Shown: in pieces, positions 1-4,830 of the stretch
Numbering within the stretch: position 1 is the stretch's first letter
Layout: every line of letters starts with the position of its first letter
From: a virus
Lineage: Duplodnaviria; Heunggongvirae; Uroviricota; Caudoviricetes
Strand: one strand, 5' to 3'
Virus record (IMG/VR): IMGVR_UViG_2563366878_000014
DNA length: 4,830 nt
The notes under the pieces: model-generated
The model's database searches: none
The model's input: only the letters and a program-made list of their open reading frames with translations
What the model was told of the DNA's origin: nothing
Program-made: the position numbers and the translations under genes

Positions 1-1287
1 GATTCACTGGATATGATTACGGGCTTTTCGCCGTCATATAAAAAAATTGTTATTGGTGATGATGAAATAACGATGCCTGGCGACAAGGTTGTTAAGTTTA
101 AACGCGCATCAACTGCCACATATATCAATAAATCAGGCGTATTTAGTGTTGCTAAAATTGATGAGCCACGATTTGAAAAAGAAGGTTTATTGATTGAAGG
201 ACAGCGCACTAACTATTTTGTTAAATCCAATACTCCCGCTGAATGGACGAGTACCAGCAATATCGATAAAACTAATAATGGTGTTGATGAATTTGGTTTT
301 TCATATGCCAAAATGCGAACAAAAGATAATATGACAGGACAATCATCTGCACTTAGTCTGCATACATGCAGTGCATCCCGGGGGATTGATGTTAGTGGCG
401 ATAATAAGTATTGCACTGTTTCATGCAGGGTTAAAGCTCCTGATGGTCTTCGTTGTCGTTTGCGTTTTGAAAAATACGATGGGTCGGTTTATACATTTTT
501 AGGAGATGCTTATTTAACTTTCGGAACTCTGATAATAGAAAAAACTGGCGGAGCAGCCAATAGAATAGCAGCTACTGCAACTAAAGATCCGGTTACAGGG
601 TGGATTTTCTATGAGGCAACTATAGAAGCTGTTGAAGGTGAAACCTTAATTGGCGCAATGATTCAGTATGCGCCGAAAAAAGGTGGTATAACTGAAGCGG
701 GAGATTATATTTACCTTGCAACACCACAATTTGAAAACGGCGGATGTGCTTCATCTTTTGTTATTACGACAACTGCACCCGCAACCCGCTCCAGTGATAT
801 GGTGACGATCCCAACTGAAAATAATATCTATAATAGACCGCTTACGTGTCTTGTCGAGGTTAATAGAAATTGGGGCGATATTCCTCCTAATGTAGCACCG
901 CGTATTTTTGATTTTTCTGGTGTGCCACCTATTGAGTCAATTACATACGCTTTTAACACAACTGAGAAATATTACGGTCAGCTTTATATGCAAACTTATA
1001 AAGCGTCGACAAGTACTTACGTTTCTAGTGTGTTTGCTGGTCGAACTGATGTTCGAAAATTCATTGGTGGTTTTAATATTTATTCTGATGGTACTAAACG
1101 AGTAGTTTCTAACGGTGAGGCTACTAAAACTATGAAAACGGAGTGGACGGGCGTAAAAACACGGACCTTTATTCGAATTGGAGGTCAAGCCACATCGGGA
1201 ACTCGTCATCTATTCGGCCATTTGAGAAATCTTCGTCTCTGGCATAAAGAATTAACTGATGCGCAAATGGGGGAGAGTATTAAATGA
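1..1287 (+). CDS. Tail fibre / receptor-binding protein, C-terminal part (5'-partial; frame open from base 1, 428 codons in window). C-terminus looks like a lectin-type jelly-roll (LamG/ConA-like) domain.
   Basis: Frame 1 has no stop from base 1 to TGA at 1285-1287. The first ATG at 13 has no room for an RBS, so the gene most likely starts upstream of the window. C-terminal motif ...GTRHLFGHLRNLRLWHKELTDAQM matches my recollection of the typical end of LamG-like jelly-roll domains in phage fibre tips. N-terminal window segment RASTATYINKSG...DEPRF...GLLIEGQRTNY resembles the start of a second such domain (weaker). Genomic context is tail fibre (Tfa remnant and Pin recombinase downstream). Confidence 0.75.
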   Translation, partial: DSLDMITGFSPSYKKIVIGDDEITMPGDKVVKFKRASTATYINKSGVFSVAKIDEPRFEKEGLLIEGQRTNYFVKSNTPAEWTSTSNIDKTNNGVDEFGFSYAKMRTKDNMTGQSSALSLHTCSASRGIDVSGDNKYCTVSCRVKAPDGLRCRLRFEKYDGSVYTFLGDAYLTFGTLIIEKTGGAANRIAATATKDPVTGWIFYEATIEAVEGETLIGAMIQYAPKKGGITEAGDYIYLATPQFENGGCASSFVITTTAPATRSSDMVTIPTENNIYNRPLTCLVEVNRNWGDIPPNVAPRIFDFSGVPPIESITYAFNTTEKYYGQLYMQTYKASTSTYVSSVFAGRTDVRKFIGGFNIYSDGTKRVVSNGEATKTMKTEWTGVKTRTFIRIGGQATSGTRHLFGHLRNLRLWHKELTDAQMGESIK

Positions 1288-1673
1288 AAGATTTAACACT
1301 CAAATTTGCAGACAGGGTCGACTTTTCGGCCTTTATGGAGAGCATTGGCTATTATGATGACGAGTCGATGCAGGATGATATTCTTATTGACGTGATAGGT
1401 AATGTGTACAAAGAAACCGGAGAACTTACTGAAGATGGCGAGCCGGTATGTGTTAAGGAGGACGGATATTTTGTAAATGTGCGCATCATTAATGATTCGC
1501 AAATATCGTCATTATTCGATGAACACGCGGTTGCTGTTGAGCATCAACTCCGTAGCTGGATGTGAGGAAGAAAAATGGCTACATCGACAGTAATTCCTGA
1601 TGACATCAAAACGCTAAAGGGAGATGTCAGTAAGGCAAAGGAAGATATTTCCTCAATTAACGTAAAAGTATCA
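858..1673. repeat. Tandem duplication unit 1 (816 bp), identical to 1674-2489.
   Basis: Checked line by line against 1674-2489 and found no mismatch. Identical ORF pairs in the supplied track are offset by exactly 816 bp (908/1724, 937/1753, 1284/2100). Confidence 0.95.
1284..1565 (+). CDS. Hypothetical acidic 93-aa protein, translationally coupled to the fibre gene; candidate fibre accessory/chaperone (copy 1).
   Basis: ATG at 1284 overlaps the fibre stop (ATGA). SD-like GGGGGAGAG lies 7-8 nt upstream. The protein is D/E-rich. No family recognised from memory. Confidence 0.65.
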   Translation: MKDLTLKFADRVDFSAFMESIGYYDDESMQDDILIDVIGNVYKETGELTEDGEPVCVKEDGYFVNVRIINDSQISSLFDEHAVAVEHQLRSWM

Positions 1674-1679
1674 GGTTAA
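1575..1679 (+). pseudogene. Truncated N-terminal fragment (34 codons) of the 234-aa gene, created by the duplication junction.
   Basis: Same RBS (GAGGAAG) and ATG as the 2391 gene. Reads MATSTVIPDDIKTLKGDVSKAKEDISSINVKVS, then the junction adds G and TAA at 1677-1679. Confidence 0.7.
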
Positions 1680-2103
1680 TAGAAATTGGGGCGATATTCC
1701 TCCTAATGTAGCACCGCGTATTTTTGATTTTTCTGGTGTGCCACCTATTGAGTCAATTACATACGCTTTTAACACAACTGAGAAATATTACGGTCAGCTT
1801 TATATGCAAACTTATAAAGCGTCGACAAGTACTTACGTTTCTAGTGTGTTTGCTGGTCGAACTGATGTTCGAAAATTCATTGGTGGTTTTAATATTTATT
1901 CTGATGGTACTAAACGAGTAGTTTCTAACGGTGAGGCTACTAAAACTATGAAAACGGAGTGGACGGGCGTAAAAACACGGACCTTTATTCGAATTGGAGG
2001 TCAAGCCACATCGGGAACTCGTCATCTATTCGGCCATTTGAGAAATCTTCGTCTCTGGCATAAAGAATTAACTGATGCGCAAATGGGGGAGAGTATTAAA
2101 TGA
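1674..2103 (+). pseudogene. Duplicated 3' fragment of the fibre gene (last ~143 codons, including the lectin-like C-terminus) with no proper start or RBS.
   Basis: Identical to 858-1287. The frame opens only after TAA at 1663-1665. There is no ATG with an SD; the ORF track start at 1738 is an internal GTG. Confidence 0.7.
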
Positions 2104-2381
2104 AAGATTTAACACTCAAATTTGCAGACAGGGTCGACTTTTCGGCCTTTATGGAGAGCATTGGCTATTATGATGACGAGTCGATGCAGGATGATATTCT
2201 TATTGACGTGATAGGTAATGTGTACAAAGAAACCGGAGAACTTACTGAAGATGGCGAGCCGGTATGTGTTAAGGAGGACGGATATTTTGTAAATGTGCGC
2301 ATCATTAATGATTCGCAAATATCGTCATTATTCGATGAACACGCGGTTGCTGTTGAGCATCAACTCCGTAGCTGGATGTGA
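2100..2381 (+). CDS. Hypothetical acidic 93-aa protein (copy 2, identical to 1284-1565).
   Basis: Identical sequence with the same RBS, carried inside the duplicated fibre fragment. It could be expressed by read-through transcription. Confidence 0.6.
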   Translation: MKDLTLKFADRVDFSAFMESIGYYDDESMQDDILIDVIGNVYKETGELTEDGEPVCVKEDGYFVNVRIINDSQISSLFDEHAVAVEHQLRSWM

Positions 2382-2390
2382 GGAAGAAAA

Positions 2391-3095
2391 ATGGCTACAT
2401 CGACAGTAATTCCTGATGACATCAAAACGCTAAAGGGAGATGTCAGTAAGGCAAAGGAAGATATTTCCTCAATTAACGTAAAAGTATCAACGCTTCAGAC
2501 TGATATGGACAGTGCAAAGCAGGATATCAGTACCAGATACACAAAAACAGAAGTGGATAATAAGCTGAAAAACAAAGTGGAAGTGAACGATCTGGAAAGT
2601 GGTCGTTATGGCGGAGATTTTTACCCGCTGACTGGCCGTGAAGCGTTTTATTTATGGGGATTGGGCACAACTACAGCGGCGGCAAATCTTTATCTTAATC
2701 CTGACCCTGCAATTTCGTCTGTGCTGCGGTCAACATCGTCTATCCGCTATAAACATTCAGTAGAGACGATAGATTCAGAGCACGCCGATCTCATTTTCAG
2801 GATGCGCCCTGTGTGGTACAGGTCGCAATGCGAAAATGACAGGCGTGACTGGGGATTCTATGGATTGATTGCCGAGGAAGTAGGAGAAATTGCCCCTCAG
2901 TTTGTTCACTGGCGACCAGCCAACGAAGATGATGCACCGGAAACCATTTCCAGCAATGGCCTTGTTGCCGAAGGTGTAATGTACGAACGTCTGGTTGTTC
3001 CACTGATTCACCATATCCAGAAACTGACTGAAAGAGTTGATGAACTTGAGTCAGAATTGAAGTTGTTATCAACTTCCCAAAGCGATATCGGATAA
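2391..3095 (+). CDS. 234-aa fibre-like protein: N-terminal coiled-coil-like region plus C-terminal domain resembling the phage intramolecular chaperone (Peptidase S74-like) domain.
   Basis: Strong RBS GAGGAAG 5 nt before the ATG. C-terminal motifs LIFRMRPVWYR, GLIAEEVGEIAPQFV and VMYERLVVPLIHHIQKLTERVDELESEL match my recollection of the S74 chaperone-domain consensus (LRPVxY / GxIAQEV..P / Y..LVPLL..IKEL). Confidence 0.8.
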   Translation: MATSTVIPDDIKTLKGDVSKAKEDISSINVKVSTLQTDMDSAKQDISTRYTKTEVDNKLKNKVEVNDLESGRYGGDFYPLTGREAFYLWGLGTTTAAANLYLNPDPAISSVLRSTSSIRYKHSVETIDSEHADLIFRMRPVWYRSQCENDRRDWGFYGLIAEEVGEIAPQFVHWRPANEDDAPETISSNGLVAEGVMYERLVVPLIHHIQKLTERVDELESELKLLSTSQSDIG

Positions 3096-3105
3096 AGGAG
3101 GAGTA

Positions 3106-3399
3106 ATGGATATAACACCTTTTCTTCATGCGCTTTGTGCTGTGGCTGCGCAGGTAATGATTGGTCTTTTTACCGGAAACTGGGTTTACGGGGCGATAGC
3201 CGGTTGTACGTTCTTCATTGCGCGTGAACACACCCAGGCAGAATATCGCTGGATTGAAATGTTCGGGCATGGCAAGCGGATTAACATGCCGTGGTGGGGC
3301 GGTTTTGATCCGCGTGTTTGGGATGTGGCAAGCCTGATAGATTTTGCTGTGCCGGTGGTGGCGTGTCTGCTGGTCTGGCTGTTGGTTAATCGTGGGTGA
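3106..3399 (+). CDS. 97-aa small predicted inner-membrane protein (2-3 hydrophobic helices), hypothetical; possible moron.
   Basis: Strong RBS AAGGAGG 4-5 nt before the ATG. Hydrophobic stretches FLHALCAVAAQVMIGLFTG, WVYGAIAGCTFFIA and VASLIDFAVPVVACLLVWLLV. Spot-checked lines are GC-richer than the upstream genes. Confidence 0.7.
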   Translation: MDITPFLHALCAVAAQVMIGLFTGNWVYGAIAGCTFFIAREHTQAEYRWIEMFGHGKRINMPWWGGFDPRVWDVASLIDFAVPVVACLLVWLLVNRG

Positions 3400-3409
3400 A
3401 AAAAGGTGA

Positions 3410-3529
3410 GCTGTATATGCAACGGAGGAAGAAACCCCGTTGCTGGAAGCCTGGAAAAAGTATCGGGTGTTGCTGAACCGTGTTGATACGTCAACTGCAC
3501 AGGATATTGAATGGCCAGCACTGCCGTAG
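3410..3529 (+). pseudogene. tfa: 3' remnant of a tail fibre assembly (Tfa-family) gene: conserved C-terminal 39 codons only.
   Basis: Frame 2 reads [39 protein letters not shown] then TAG, the C-terminal signature I recall for lambda Tfa / Mu U / P2 G-type proteins. An in-frame TGA at 3407-3409 sits immediately upstream and there is no start or RBS. Confidence 0.75.
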
Positions 3530-3605
3530 GGTAAAACATATAAATTCTATAATTAGATGTATCTTTCCATTTACGGCAAGGAAGGGGGCTTGGAAGACGT
3601 AAAGC

Positions 3606-3628
3606 ATCTCACACCGAGATTATTTTTT
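3606..3628 (+). terminator. Weak candidate intrinsic terminator for the + strand gene string (5-bp stem ATCTC/GAGAT, then TATTTTTT).
   Basis: Hairpin 3606-3620 followed by a T-run at 3621-3628. The stem is short and AT-rich, and the site overlaps the recombinase stop on the other strand. Confidence 0.25.
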
Positions 3629-4217
3629 ATATGTCAGGTGTCTGAAGTTTTGCTTTGGCTCTTAAAATGGTTTGCCGCGAGGTTTTGAATTCCCGGGCAA
3701 TGGCACTTATACTTACACCTGACTTAATTCGTTCGAATACCACCTGTTTCTGTTCTTCATTTAACACAGGTGGTCGACCAAAACGTTTCCCTGCGCCCCG
3801 GGCTCTTACTATCCCGGAATGAGTGCGTTCAAGTAAAAGGTCTCGTTCAAATTCAGCGACTGCTGAAATTACTTGCATCATCATTTTTCCTGTTGGACTG
3901 GTCAGGTCAATGCCCCCCAATGCTAAGCAATGCACTCTGATACCTGTTTCGGTCAGTTGTTCCACTGTTTTCCTGATATCCATTGCATTACAACCAAGGC
4001 GATCCAGTTTTGTCACAATCAATTGATCACCACATTTCAGGCGAGCAAGCAACCGGTTAAAACCAGGACGCTCACTGGTTGCTGCTGAGCCGCTAATGTG
4101 TTCTTCGATTATTTGCTGAGGTTTGATTTTAAAACCTGCACTTTCGATTTCCCGGCGTTGATTTTCGGTGGTCTGATCCAGAGTTGATATCCGACAGTAA
4201 GCAAAAATTCGAGACAT
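3627..4217 (-). CDS. pinR: Small serine recombinase, DNA invertase/resolvase family (Pin-like), 196 aa.
   Basis: N-terminal YCRISTLDQ with the catalytic Ser, central LDRLGCN...[16 protein letters not shown], and C-terminal GRPP plus helix-turn-helix are hallmarks of the Hin/Gin/Pin and resolvase family. Length and sequence match my recollection of E. coli prophage PinR/PinQ; I cannot tell those two apart without a search. Convergent with the tail-fibre genes. Confidence 0.93.
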
Positions 4218-4596
4218 AGTGAGACTCTATACGAAATTGGTGTACATATCATAATGCATATCCAAAAATTATTTCGCTTATTATTGCACATATTTGTATG
4301 TATACGTTCGAAAATAAACAAATTCGGATGCAGTCCCGTAATTTTGGTGTAACCCAAAATCGATTTTTTGAAAAATGGCTTTAACTCGGTTTGTTTTTCG
4401 AACTCCGGGCGGACTCGAGAAAGACGAATAATAGTGTTGTATGTTGTTTTAGCCAGATTTCAATTTGTTTGGTCTTGGAAAAGTGGAGCAAAAAGTTGTT
4501 AAAGTGGAAAAATGGTAAAAAAGTAGGTTGTTGCGGCATAACGTAGTTGTTGATATTTTTTAATGCATTGAAAAATTATTTTTCAGGGGGTGTTTA
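4218..4596 (-). promoter_or_regulatory. AT-rich intergenic region upstream of the recombinase gene; expected to hold its promoter, exact -10/-35 not resolved.
   Basis: 379-bp non-coding spacer. Contains the dyad ATTTTGG-TGTAAC-CCAAAAT (4341-4360) and three GTTGTTG repeats (4495-4552). A TATGAT -10-like hexamer on the - strand lies about 30 nt upstream of the ATG. Confidence 0.3.
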
Positions 4597-4830
4597 TTAC
4601 ACTTTACCATTTAAATTTTGGTTGTCTTTAAGAACTGATATCGCTGTTTGTAATAATTCTTTGTTATCCAGCCATGACTTTTTCTTTATGTTTCCTTCAA
4701 TGTAATCAAGCAATGTTCTGGTATTGATAGGTCTTCCCTGTTTTGCCACTTCCACGACAGCATCTCCCAGGATAATTCTGACTTCAGGAAGCTGCGCGGG
4801 GAACCACTTTAGGGTGTCTTTTGATTTCAT
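4597..4830 (-). CDS. ynaE: 77-aa hypothetical protein in the position of Rac ynaE / Qin ydfK (cold-shock-induced prophage gene family); start ATG is at the window edge.
   Basis: Complete 77-codon ORF from ATG at 4830-4828 to the stop at 4597-4599. Same strand as and directly upstream of the Pin-like gene, as I recall for pinR-ynaE and pinQ-ydfK in E. coli K-12. Symbol is assigned by position and length from memory, not by verified alignment. Confidence 0.6.
   Translation of the reverse strand: MKSKDTLKWFPAQLPEVRIILGDAVVEVAKQGRPINTRTLLDYIEGNIKKKSWLDNKELLQTAISVLKDNQNLNGKV

Follow-up and report, generated by a model that had tools for sequence, protein, structure and literature searches.

The window, that is, the whole stretch of 4,830 nt analyzed here, comes from draft scaffold KB732535.1, in which runs of N adjoin it. 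Very probably, it holds the distal end of the lateral (side) tail fiber locus of a lambda-like Escherichia coli prophage that adjoins prfC. E. coli F344 matches the window at 100%, and phage PhiR49_1 matches it at 99.5%; in both, the gene order is the same (J, lom, stf, the 93-aa gene, the S74 gene, the 97-aa gene, a tfa remnant, pin, and ydfK). The features are as follows.

1-1287, plus strand: C-terminal 428 codons of stf (annotation of L001 and L002; phrog_1419 tail protein over aa 1-427, E = 3e-201; GTA_spike_fiber, NF048003)
1-215, plus strand: conserved stf hinge, 77-82% nucleotide identity to other alleles
216-1168, plus strand: allele-specific stf tip body, from homology blocks
1169-1287, plus strand: conserved stf 3' end, from homology blocks
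857-2488, plus strand: perfect tandem duplication, 2 x 816 nt (857-1672 equals 1673-2488; 1-nt junction microhomology)
1284-1565, plus strand: 93-aa gene, phrog_1361, function not assigned (PHROG match; gene order in phages)
2391-3095, plus strand: 234-aa distal fiber protein (PHROG matches, partial-match classes, alignment A1)
2391-2434, plus strand: its conserved N-terminal adaptor, MATSTVIPDDIKTLK, common to the alternative 346-351-aa alleles
2435-3095, plus strand: its allele body, moving as a single unit (partial-match classes)
about 2415-2590, plus strand: putative coiled coil within the 234-aa gene, rich in K, D, S, and T
2591-2735, plus strand: short tip region within the 234-aa gene
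2736-3095, plus strand: Peptidase_S74 intramolecular chaperone (PF13884), beginning at Ser116-x4-Lys121
2486-2797, no strand: support interval (2 log-likelihood units) of the total-GC change-point, best at 2576, codon 62 of the 234-aa gene
3106-3399, plus strand: 97-aa predicted membrane protein, phrog_1443 (GC 0.52, GC3 0.53)
3407-3529, plus strand: 3' remnant of tfa (tail fiber assembly), annotated as a pseudogene in L001; tfaQ/tfaR homology starts here
3627-4217, minus strand: PinQ/PinR-type serine DNA invertase (Pfam Resolvase, E = 2.5e-36, plus HTH_7; phrog_125)
4597-4830, minus strand: ydfK/ynaE-family cold-shock gene, at whose start codon the window ends

Full-length stf encodes 799 aa in complete genomes. 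The source scaffold has an N-gap directly before base 1 of the window, which cuts stf there, and the apparent 424-aa gene of the window is the C-terminal part left by this gap. Because of the 816-bp duplication, the start of the 234-aa gene also occurs in truncated form at 1575-1672, with a stop directly past the junction; part of the stf 3' end recurs at 1673-2103, and the 93-aa gene recurs at 2100-2381. A search for the repeat junction in 5,426 complete E. coli genomes, IMG/VR, and JGI metagenomes did not find it, and the three other assembly places shown for this 93-aa variant are single copy each. Because the repeat is known, among the assemblies searched, from this draft scaffold alone, in which N-gaps and a further misplaced repeat lie immediately upstream, the duplication is probably an assembly artifact. 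In the AT-rich block drawn from 1 to 2600, 816 nt are duplicated sequence.

The N-gaps of KB732535.1, the 624-nt piece repeated upstream of the window, and the unique 816-bp repeat could suggest that misassembly produced the compositional mosaic as well. Nevertheless, once the duplicate is removed, the sequence is collinear with and 99.9-100% identical to closed genomes and an isolated phage, and these show the same composition profile. The artifact reading thus holds for the duplication only; for the mosaic itself it is refuted, and we regard it as next to impossible.

The original prediction described an AT-rich fiber tip beside GC-richer sequence, with the shift inside the 234-aa gene. Its spot counts are exact (0.300 for 121-180 and 0.533 for 3241-3300), the contrast between blocks is real (0.399 for 1-2600 and 0.488 for 2601-3540), and the best total-GC change-point in 1-3540, with the 816-nt duplicate removed, does fall inside that gene, at 2576. 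Its log-likelihood ratio (LLR) is 10.2; 300 independent shuffles averaged 2.7 and reached 10.5 at most. The GC step is genuine but of moderate size. Steps of LLR 14-16 are found within gene J of this prophage. Recursive segmentation of the 16-kb context placed steps only at L001 position 5952 (LLR 67; inside stf, 48 nt upstream of base 1 of the window), at the prophage/prfC edge (L001 11145; LLR 68), and at two weaker points.

Third codon positions place the boundaries elsewhere. GC3 is 0.52 in the stf N terminus, 0.27-0.29 in the stf C terminus, and about 0.45 (0.453) in the three downstream genes, with change-points near stf codon 279 and near window position 1313, close to the boundary of stf and the 93-aa gene; a GC3 scan of the 234-aa gene found none inside it. 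When GC is modeled from amino acid composition, the two parts of the 234-aa gene leave residuals of +0.005 and +0.008, the stf C terminus one of -0.039, and the 97-aa gene one of +0.040. The stf part at 1-1287 (GC 0.396, GC3 0.269) is the module that is genuinely AT-rich and low in GC3.

These data bear directly on the proposal that the 234-aa gene is a chimera, in which an AT-rich coiled coil that came with the tip was joined to an older, host-adapted S74 half akin to the 97-aa gene. In favor of a chimera, the gene contains the change-point (2576), Drexlerviridae "chaperone" genes are similar by blastn only over 2593-3027, and the matches of several PHROG families begin no earlier than aa 50-66 or aa 104-111. 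Amino acid composition alone, however, reproduces the step: predicted GC rises from 0.371 to 0.467, and observed GC rises from 0.376 to 0.475. The K/D/S/T-rich coiled-coil stalk uses codons that are AT-rich at positions 1 and 2, and GC3 of the two halves (0.41 versus 0.45) differs by about 0.65 standard errors. The intragenic step thus reflects amino acid composition and is not a junction of different origins.

Homologs also argue against a chimera. The protein of T1-like phage PeterMerian is 56% identical over aa 1-223, coiled coil included, and its gene has the same low-to-high GC gradient (0.35, 0.44, 0.48), although, unlike in the window's gene, GC3 differs between its N part (0.22) and C part (0.45). 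Moreover, phrog_3299 (aa 1-227) and phrog_454 (aa 22-228) align contiguously to the C termini of long fibers, and DT57C LtfA carries both a DIxTxYTKTEVD shaft motif and a chaperone domain. Among E. coli genomes, 1,049 match the 234-aa gene, 740 of them over at least 80% of its length. Match classes come from samples of 60 records spaced evenly along the ranking, and every partial match in them covered nt 1-44 or 1-59 only, with no split near 2576-2736. The actual joint lies at codons 15-20 (window 2434/2435) and may add a small part to the total-GC step. The lower bound of the change-point interval, 2486, is about 50 nt from this joint. With the S74 half residing in a cassette common to virulent phages and not in the lambdoid backbone, we consider a chimeric origin very unlikely.

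The fiber tip fared differently: that 1 to about 1170 is an acquired, AT-rich module is supported. It is a compositionally foreign, exchangeable unit, as evidenced by its low GC3, its synonymous residual of -0.039, flanking homology breakpoints, free reassortment, and membership in a lateral tail fiber family that AT-richer virulent siphoviruses also have. Comparison of 5,426 E. coli genomes and phages placed breakpoints at about 215, 1169-1240, 2434, 3105, and 3384-3418, and none between the coiled coil and the S74 domain in the records sampled. Homology blocks against Tritos, PhiR63_1, ESCO3, and PhiR55_1 run from -30 to 215, 1169 to 1618/1633, 3105 to 3456, and 2435 to 3384. In E. coli, the tip is freely combined with different downstream alleles: it occurs in 227 genomes and this distal allele in 740, the two together in 179, and all four combinations of tip and distal allele were found.

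The 93-aa gene is part of a conserved linker block (1169-1618); in lambdoid, T1-like, T5-like, and Queuovirinae phages, its place is always after the fiber gene and before the S74 gene. The cassette of fiber tip, 93-aa gene, and S74 gene occurs in virulent Drexlerviridae, Queuovirinae, and Demerecviridae, where local GC is flat; virulent siphoviruses with this arrangement have 38-47% GC. In the lambdoid tail region (53-60% GC; 54% upstream of the window, in the virion-attachment domain at the stf N terminus), the same cassette is a GC trough. Assignment of the S74 half to the lambdoid backbone was considered and rejected, as that half belongs to the cassette held in common with virulent phages. 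Judged by the test that accompanied the original prediction, co-occurrence in unrelated phages, the tip lies next to the 93-aa and S74 genes in unrelated phage families; the 97-aa gene alone, and not the S74 half, is specific to the temperate backbone and has host-like GC. That gene is found in temperate phages only, being absent after the cassette in the four virulent phages examined, and is 94-96% conserved in many lambdoid phages, whatever the upstream allele. The right boundary of the replaced fiber cassette is at the tfa remnant that follows; tfaQ/tfaR homology, which nearly all E. coli genomes have, begins at position 1735-1747 of the query 1673-3540 in thousands of genomes.

The trough could instead have evolved in place in lambdoid phages, without a horizontal origin, through selection on fiber genes or protein composition (e.g., trimer folding helped by slow translation of rare codons). 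It recurs in all lambdoid alleles examined, including an Escherichia ruysiae allele (71% identical), with the GC3 trough weaker in the others, and amino acid composition accounts for part of the total-GC difference. Also, more than 200 lateral tail fibers of virulent siphoviruses share 54-59% identity with the tip protein, and lambdoid relatives are about equally distant, which points to no donor lineage; a donor of this allele closer than 82% (nucleotide) or 71% (amino acid) was not found. Yet amino acid content does not account for the -0.039 residual and the 0.27 GC3 of the stf C terminus, both of which are effects at synonymous sites, and in virulent phages, with genomes of that composition to begin with, the cassette makes no trough. 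Sharp breakpoints and free reassortment demonstrate exchange, and the tip copies in all 227 E. coli genomes are at least 99% identical, the next relative being at 82%, which suggests recent spread. An origin in place is accordingly improbable, if less so than a chimeric 234-aa gene.

Alongside the observed composition, breakpoints, reassortment, and common architecture, we propose that the locus is a series of independently exchangeable cassettes with short conserved linkers between them, a reading to which we give, as a whole and with the prophage identification included, a probability of about 85%. The order would be the stf N-terminal domain; the hinge (1-215); a receptor-binding tip body (216-1168); a linker (1169-2434, numbered through the duplicate) that comprises the 3' end of stf, the 93-aa gene, and codons 1-15 of the gene after it; a distal fiber body (2435-3095) ending in a putatively self-cleaving S74 chaperone; the 97-aa gene (3106-3399); the tfa remnant; and pin. 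Homologous recombination in the linkers would swap tip and distal alleles among prophages and between temperate phages and virulent siphoviruses. The cassette would have the composition of the AT-richer virulent siphoviruses, giving the trough in the lambdoid tail region; with composition as the only guide to direction, we infer transfer from the virulent pool to lambdoid phages. Because GC3 of this tip (0.27-0.29) is below that of the ESCO3 tip (0.38), the sole virulent-phage allele measured, the match to the virulent pool is imperfect. This tip allele is the extreme case. Self-cleavage of the 234-aa protein and the roles in fiber assembly are predictions from sequence. A GC patchwork is the usual signature of an exchangeable tail fiber cassette, and such a mosaic with a swappable cassette in a lambda-like prophage is already known biology.

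Several known systems resemble parts of this locus. First, as in Mu (Gin), P1 (Cin), and e14 (Pin), a Pin-family serine invertase adjoins fiber/tfa sequence. The window differs in having neither inverted duplicate fiber ends nor the crossover-site core AAACCNNGGTTT, sought throughout it with one mismatch allowed; pin is apparently an orphan, and variation arises by allele replacement, not inversion. Second, the S74 domain resembles the chaperones of endosialidase and T5 pb1 in its Ser-x4-Lys at the domain start, its C-terminal helix, and a PF13884 score above gathering (27.3 bits against a cutoff of 22; aa 116-172), although the sequence match is weak and self-cleavage and trimer folding are predicted here. 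Third, likeness to the Stf/Tfa of lambda (Ur-lambda) includes the position after J and lom, PF08400 (phage_tail_N) in the 799-aa protein, and a tfa fragment with Qin/Rac-type pin and ydfK downstream; here, the tip/93-aa/S74 cassette replaces the distal part and the Tfa chaperone, leaving only the 3' tfa remnant.

The closest parallels are in virulent siphoviruses. DT57C, a T5-like phage, has L-shaped, branched two-protein fibers (LtfA/LtfB; PMC4728585, PMC10713586) with, as here, a proximal fiber and a separately encoded distal protein. The C-terminal chaperone domain of LtfA (residues 952-1070; PDB 8hqz) matches aa 109-224 of the 234-aa protein (E = 5e-7), and the DIxTxYTKTEVD motif is in both. 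In the window, the distal protein has 234 aa, or about 115 aa after predicted cleavage, and the 93-aa gene intervenes. Lateral tail fiber loci of siphoviruses are hypervariable past a conserved 5' end and encode one, two, or more proteins (PMC8594841), and the third-gene product of IrisVonRoten is a distal receptor-binding protein with a chaperone domain on a proximal fiber (PMC11990801). The Drexlerviridae, Queuovirinae, and Demerecviridae loci of the BASEL collection (PMC8594841, PMC11990801) have the same order of fiber gene, ~92-aa gene, and S74-ending protein, with a tip protein 54-59% identical and a distal protein 56% identical (PeterMerian bas05_0029). There, as in the window, variability starts downstream of the conserved 5' end and the N terminus of the distal subunit is conserved. 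The window differs in that a temperate prophage carries the cassette behind an stf N-terminal domain of lambda type. After the cassette come the gene for the 97-aa membrane protein, the tfa remnant, and pin, which were seen in none of the four virulent phages examined, and only in this lambdoid setting does the cassette make a GC trough.

Identity is 99.9-100% between the stretch and E. coli chromosomes and 99.5% between it and PhiR49_1, an isolated temperate phage. In every match 816 nt of the window are missing: the genomes align over 4,014 nt, and PhiR49_1 has 2,700 nt for window 1-3516. The closed E. coli genome F344 provides the gene order. There, the J tail tip gene is followed by lom, stf (799 aa), a 93-aa gene, a 234-aa "tail fiber domain" gene, and a 97-aa gene, and then by a tfa pseudogene fragment, a pin-type recombinase, ydfK, ynaM, dinI, and the host gene prfC. 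The window is therefore the distal end of a lambda-like prophage fibre locus. A coding stretch that the original prediction had read as a 424-aa gene (13-1287) is indeed part of this locus but not a separate gene, since it constitutes the final 428 codons of stf. The attachment domain phage_tail_N (PF08400) lies upstream of the window, as seen on the 799-aa stf product of two further loci (L011 and L012). Source records name the 93-, 234-, and 97-aa proteins only as "hypothetical," "tail fiber domain-containing," or "chaperone of endosialidase," and NCBIfam has no family for any of the three.

The extra 816 nt are a perfect tandem repeat, in which 857-1672 recurs as 1673-2488 with 1 nt of microhomology at the junction. 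As a result, the 93-aa gene is present twice and stf has a single complete end; of the 234-aa gene there is an intact version and a 32-codon stub, which meets a stop immediately past the junction. None of 5,426 complete E. coli genomes covers this junction; exact-match searches of IMG/VR and JGI metagenome contigs also failed to find it, and it is absent from the best-matching phage records; moreover, the same 93-aa variant is single copy in all three of the other assembly places shown. The source, traced through an exact protein match, is scaffold KB732535.1 of draft assembly GCA_000351185.1, with the window at 1902-6731 of locus L013. There, a 10-N gap directly precedes window base 1, and a 624-nt piece identical to window 2811-3434, flanked by N runs, sits upstream of the window within positions 1-1901 of L013. 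The N-terminal half of stf is therefore missing from the scaffold, and the region is unreliable as assembled. Because of the adjacent gaps and the misplaced repeat, we take the 816-nt repeat to be probably an assembly artefact; a real recent duplication is less likely. Composition statistics were run on a de-duplicated sequence (window 1-1672 plus 2489-4830) that differs from F344 at one base. That base, at window 1318 (duplicate 2134), replaces an Ala of the 93-aa protein with Val (ADRVDFS instead of ADRADFS), and in a protein collection the exact ADRVDFS variant is found on 33 contigs.

The original prediction described an AT-rich fibre tip giving way to GC-richer sequence, with the shift inside the 234-aa gene (2391-3095). 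Its spot counts were exact (0.300 for 121-180 and 0.533 for 3241-3300), and overall GC is 0.399 in 1-2600 and 0.488 in 2601-3540. In a likelihood change-point search over de-duplicated 1-3540, the best single break in total GC fell in codon 62 of the 234-aa gene, at window 2576 (support interval, 2486-2797). The support score (LLR) was 10.2, compared with a mean of 2.7 for the maxima of iid shuffles, 1 of 300 of which reached 10.5. The step is therefore real and lies at the predicted location, although it is modest. Segmentation of 16 kb returned strong breaks at position 5952 of the F344 locus, inside stf and 48 nt before window base 1 (LLR, 67), and at the prophage/prfC edge (LLR, 68). Two weaker breaks also emerged, one within J (LLR, 13.8) and the other close to the start codon of pin, at window ~4202 (LLR, 10.3). 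In equal-sized spans, the LLR reaches 16 inside J and is at most 7 in the host flank.

Two other compositional features were seen. Upstream of the window, at position 2935 of the F344 locus, GC inside J drops from ~0.60-0.64 to 0.52 with an LLR of up to 16; this step exceeds the one in the 234-aa gene, and it could point to the variable receptor-binding end of J. Between pin and ydfK, at 4218-4596, GC reaches its minimum for the window (33%).

To separate a mutational or codon-usage signal from protein composition, we used GC at third codon positions (GC3). GC3 is 0.52 in the N-terminal part of stf, 0.269-0.285 in its C-terminal part, and 0.453 in the pooled 93-, 234-, and 97-aa genes, with the tip and the downstream genes ~5.7 standard errors (SE) apart. 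GC3 shifts near stf codon 279 and again at window 1313, the latter change-point lying close to the stf/93-aa gene boundary (LLRs, 11.4 and 14.2), and the same search returned none inside the 234-aa gene. Within that gene, GC3 is 0.406 for aa 1-70 versus 0.454 for aa 116-234, a nonsignificant difference of ~0.65 SE; in the 97-aa gene it is 0.526. Expected GC was also computed per segment from the amino acid sequence under a single pooled codon usage. For aa 1-62 of the 234-aa protein, which are dominated by K, T, D, S, V, and I, the expected and observed values were 0.371 and 0.376, and for aa 63-234 they were 0.467 and 0.475. The intragenic GC step is thus essentially all amino acid composition, whereas the residuals of -0.039 for stf-C and +0.040 for the 97-aa gene reflect real differences at synonymous sites.

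A homologue from the T1-like virulent phage PeterMerian, 56% identical over aa 1-223 with the N-terminal motif and coiled coil included, has the same GC gradient (0.35, 0.44, and 0.48) as the window's gene. It follows that the gradient belongs to the protein family. In this homologue, GC3 is 0.22 for the coiled-coil part (the first 60 codons, positions 3829-4008 of the PeterMerian locus) versus 0.45 for the S74 part, unlike in the window's gene. The possibility raised in the original prediction, namely, that the 234-aa gene is a chimera joined between coiled coil and S74 domain, does not survive these measurements, as GC3 has no discontinuity there and amino acid composition accounts for the step.

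Comparative analysis places the joints elsewhere. When the natural sequence was compared by blastn with four related loci, Tritos, PhiR63_1, and Nonagvirus ESCO3 shared the blocks -30 to 215 (77-82%), 1169-1618/1633 (87-89%), and 3105-3456 (95-96%), and they carried other alleles in the bodies of both the tip (216-1168) and the 234-aa gene. PhiR55_1 shares 2435-3384 at 93% and differs in the tip and the small gene. Protein alignment of third-gene alleles of 227, 234, 346, and 351 aa revealed that only the first ~15 residues, MATSTVIPDDIKTLK, are common to all, beyond which the alleles split into two classes that are 28% identical. The 234-aa gene was matched in 1,049 E. coli genomes, 740 of them over at least 80% of its length. 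In an evenly spread sample of 60 of these records, matches covered nt 1-705 or 45-705, or else nt 1-44 or 1-59 alone, with no other partial class. PHROG profiles tell a similar story: aa 1-227 and aa 22-228 align contiguously to the C termini of ~1,380-aa fibres, and aa 1-49 match the N terminus of the 346-aa class. The joint inside the 234-aa gene is therefore at codon 15-20, and the coiled coil and S74 domain move as a unit. Their proposed separability finds no counterpart among the sampled partial matches, which end at nt 44 or 59, or in the full-length homologues of PhiR55_1 and PeterMerian.

The tip body is present in 227 E. coli genomes, always with at least 99% identity, and the next class is at 82%. 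When the tip, linker, and distal body were used together as a query against E. coli genomes, 179 contained the complete arrangement. Some paired this tip with another distal allele, the match stopping at window 1618 (equivalent to 2434); most paired another tip with this distal allele, the match beginning at 1170-1240; and some had the linker only. Since all tip/distal combinations were seen, the alleles reassort freely at conserved linkers. The tip breakpoints (~215 and 1169-1240) coincide with compositional boundaries. The locus is thus a chain of cassettes with conserved linkers between them.

Profile searches assign the tip to phrog_1419, a large family of fibres. Part of it, window 190-792 (stf aa 435-635), scores against NCBIfam NF048003, the "GTA/phage head spike fiber" domain (E value, 1.6e-15). 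The last 60 tip residues have a weak, below-threshold match to a concanavalin-like lectin fold (Laminin_G_3). Full-length relatives with 54-59% amino acid identity occur in more than 200 lambdoid, T1-like, T5-like, and Queuovirinae phages, with nucleotide-level matches of 65-70%, and the virulent siphovirus loci that share the family have 38-47% GC. The nearest nonidentical relative, at 82% nucleotide or 71% amino acid identity, is in Escherichia. A one-genome-per-species scan for a donor outside Escherichia, insensitive because exact short peptides were required, returned only an E. ruysiae prophage at 71% amino acid identity. GC3 of the tip (0.27-0.29) is below that of every sampled relative (0.34-0.38), and its synonymous-site composition is foreign. 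An acquired, AT-rich, swappable tip, as originally predicted, is borne out by this foreign GC3, by breakpoints at the tip's edges, and by its varied neighbours. The cassette may have entered the lambdoid backbone from an AT-richer pool of virulent siphoviruses, with exchange occurring by recombination within the linkers. A more specific scenario, in which the tip arrived very recently from a low-GC siphovirus lineage not yet sampled and marks a new receptor specificity that is sweeping E. coli prophages, seems unlikely to us.

Downstream of the reassorting cassettes lies a gene with a different distribution:

3106-3399, gene for a 97-aa predicted membrane protein, phrog_1443, GC 0.52 (host-like)

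Its product has no Pfam or NCBIfam family. The gene is 94-96% conserved across many lambdoid phages, independent of the upstream allele; it follows the fibre cassette in temperate phages only and is absent from all four virulent phages examined. It may be an accessory gene associated with lysogeny.

Next to it, at window 3407-4217, a pin-family invertase adjoins a mere 3' tfa remnant. The crossover-site core AAACCNNGGTTT was not found in the window, even with one mismatch allowed, nor were long inverted repeats or inverted fibre ends. The invertase therefore appears to have been orphaned by fibre-end replacement. With neither a crossover core nor inverted fibre ends, inversion switching by pin was rejected as the origin of the mosaic.

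The 234-aa protein matches Peptidase S74 (PF13884) at aa 116-172 with 27.3 bits against a curated cutoff of 22, covering profile positions 1-57 of 58. It also matches the chaperone domain of DT57C LtfA (PDB 8hqz; E value, 4.9e-7), plus a shaft motif. A weaker match is to the related domain of myelin regulatory factor. The S74 domain opens with S116-S-I-R-Y-K121, which lines up with profile position 1 and with TSGIEYKK of LtfA, and an alternative third-gene allele carries a classical SDRDLK at this predicted cleavage site. From established knowledge of the family, we take Ser116 to be the nucleophile and Lys121 to be its catalytic partner. Upstream, DISTRYTKTEVDNKL at window 2514-2570 (aa 42-60) matches the repeated shaft motif DIATTYTKTEVDSAL of LtfA residues 461-540, which suggests that long, L-shaped fibres repeat the unit that forms the short stalk of the 234-aa protein in a single copy. 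A coiled coil is putative, based on a sub-threshold Tropomyosin match and composition. The protein would dock onto the proximal fibre via its conserved N terminus, trimerise with the help of the S74 domain, and then shed that domain, leaving ~115 residues.

Overall, the original observation is confirmed in part. The mosaicism is of a known kind, the sequence is common in databases, and a search of the literature on GC mosaicism of lambdoid side tail fibres found nothing relevant. A caution follows for similar analyses: intragenic steps in total GC can stem purely from the amino acid composition of domains, and so a chimera should not be inferred until GC3, or an expectation conditioned on amino acids, has been consulted. 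Draft scaffolds, too, may insert spurious repeats that lengthen apparent islands. More broadly, temperate lambdoid phages and virulent T1-like, T5-like, and Queuovirinae phages tap one pool of receptor-binding cassettes via conserved linkers, which is useful for host-range prediction and fibre engineering, although such a pool has already been described in principle.

Known systems provide several points of comparison. The BASEL work reported that lateral fibre loci are hypervariable downstream of a conserved 5' end and encode one, two, or more proteins (PMC8594841), and that in IrisVonRoten receptor binding falls to the third-gene product, a distal protein that has a chaperone domain and is attached to a proximal fibre (PMC11990801); DT57C has a branched fibre of two proteins (PMC4728585, PMC10713586). 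Unlike Pin/Gin/Cin invertible fibre switches, the window is without inverted crossover sites around alternative fibre ends. The locus resembles lambda-type Stf in its phage_tail_N domain and its position after J and lom, but differs in that no intact gene for a cognate Tfa chaperone lies downstream, where the 3' tfa pseudogene fragment alone persists. The order of fibre gene, ~92-aa gene, and S74-ending gene recurs in PeterMerian (Drexlerviridae), KurtStettler and ESCO3 (Queuovirinae), and IrisVonRoten (Demerecviridae). The tip and the S74 gene therefore do stand contiguously in unrelated phages, an arrangement that the original prediction had counted against a mosaic and that applies to this pair of modules. 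In those four phages, GC around the cassette is a flat 38-47%, whereas in lambdoid prophages the same cassette is flanked by tail genes of 53-63% GC and by a 97-aa gene of 52-55% GC.
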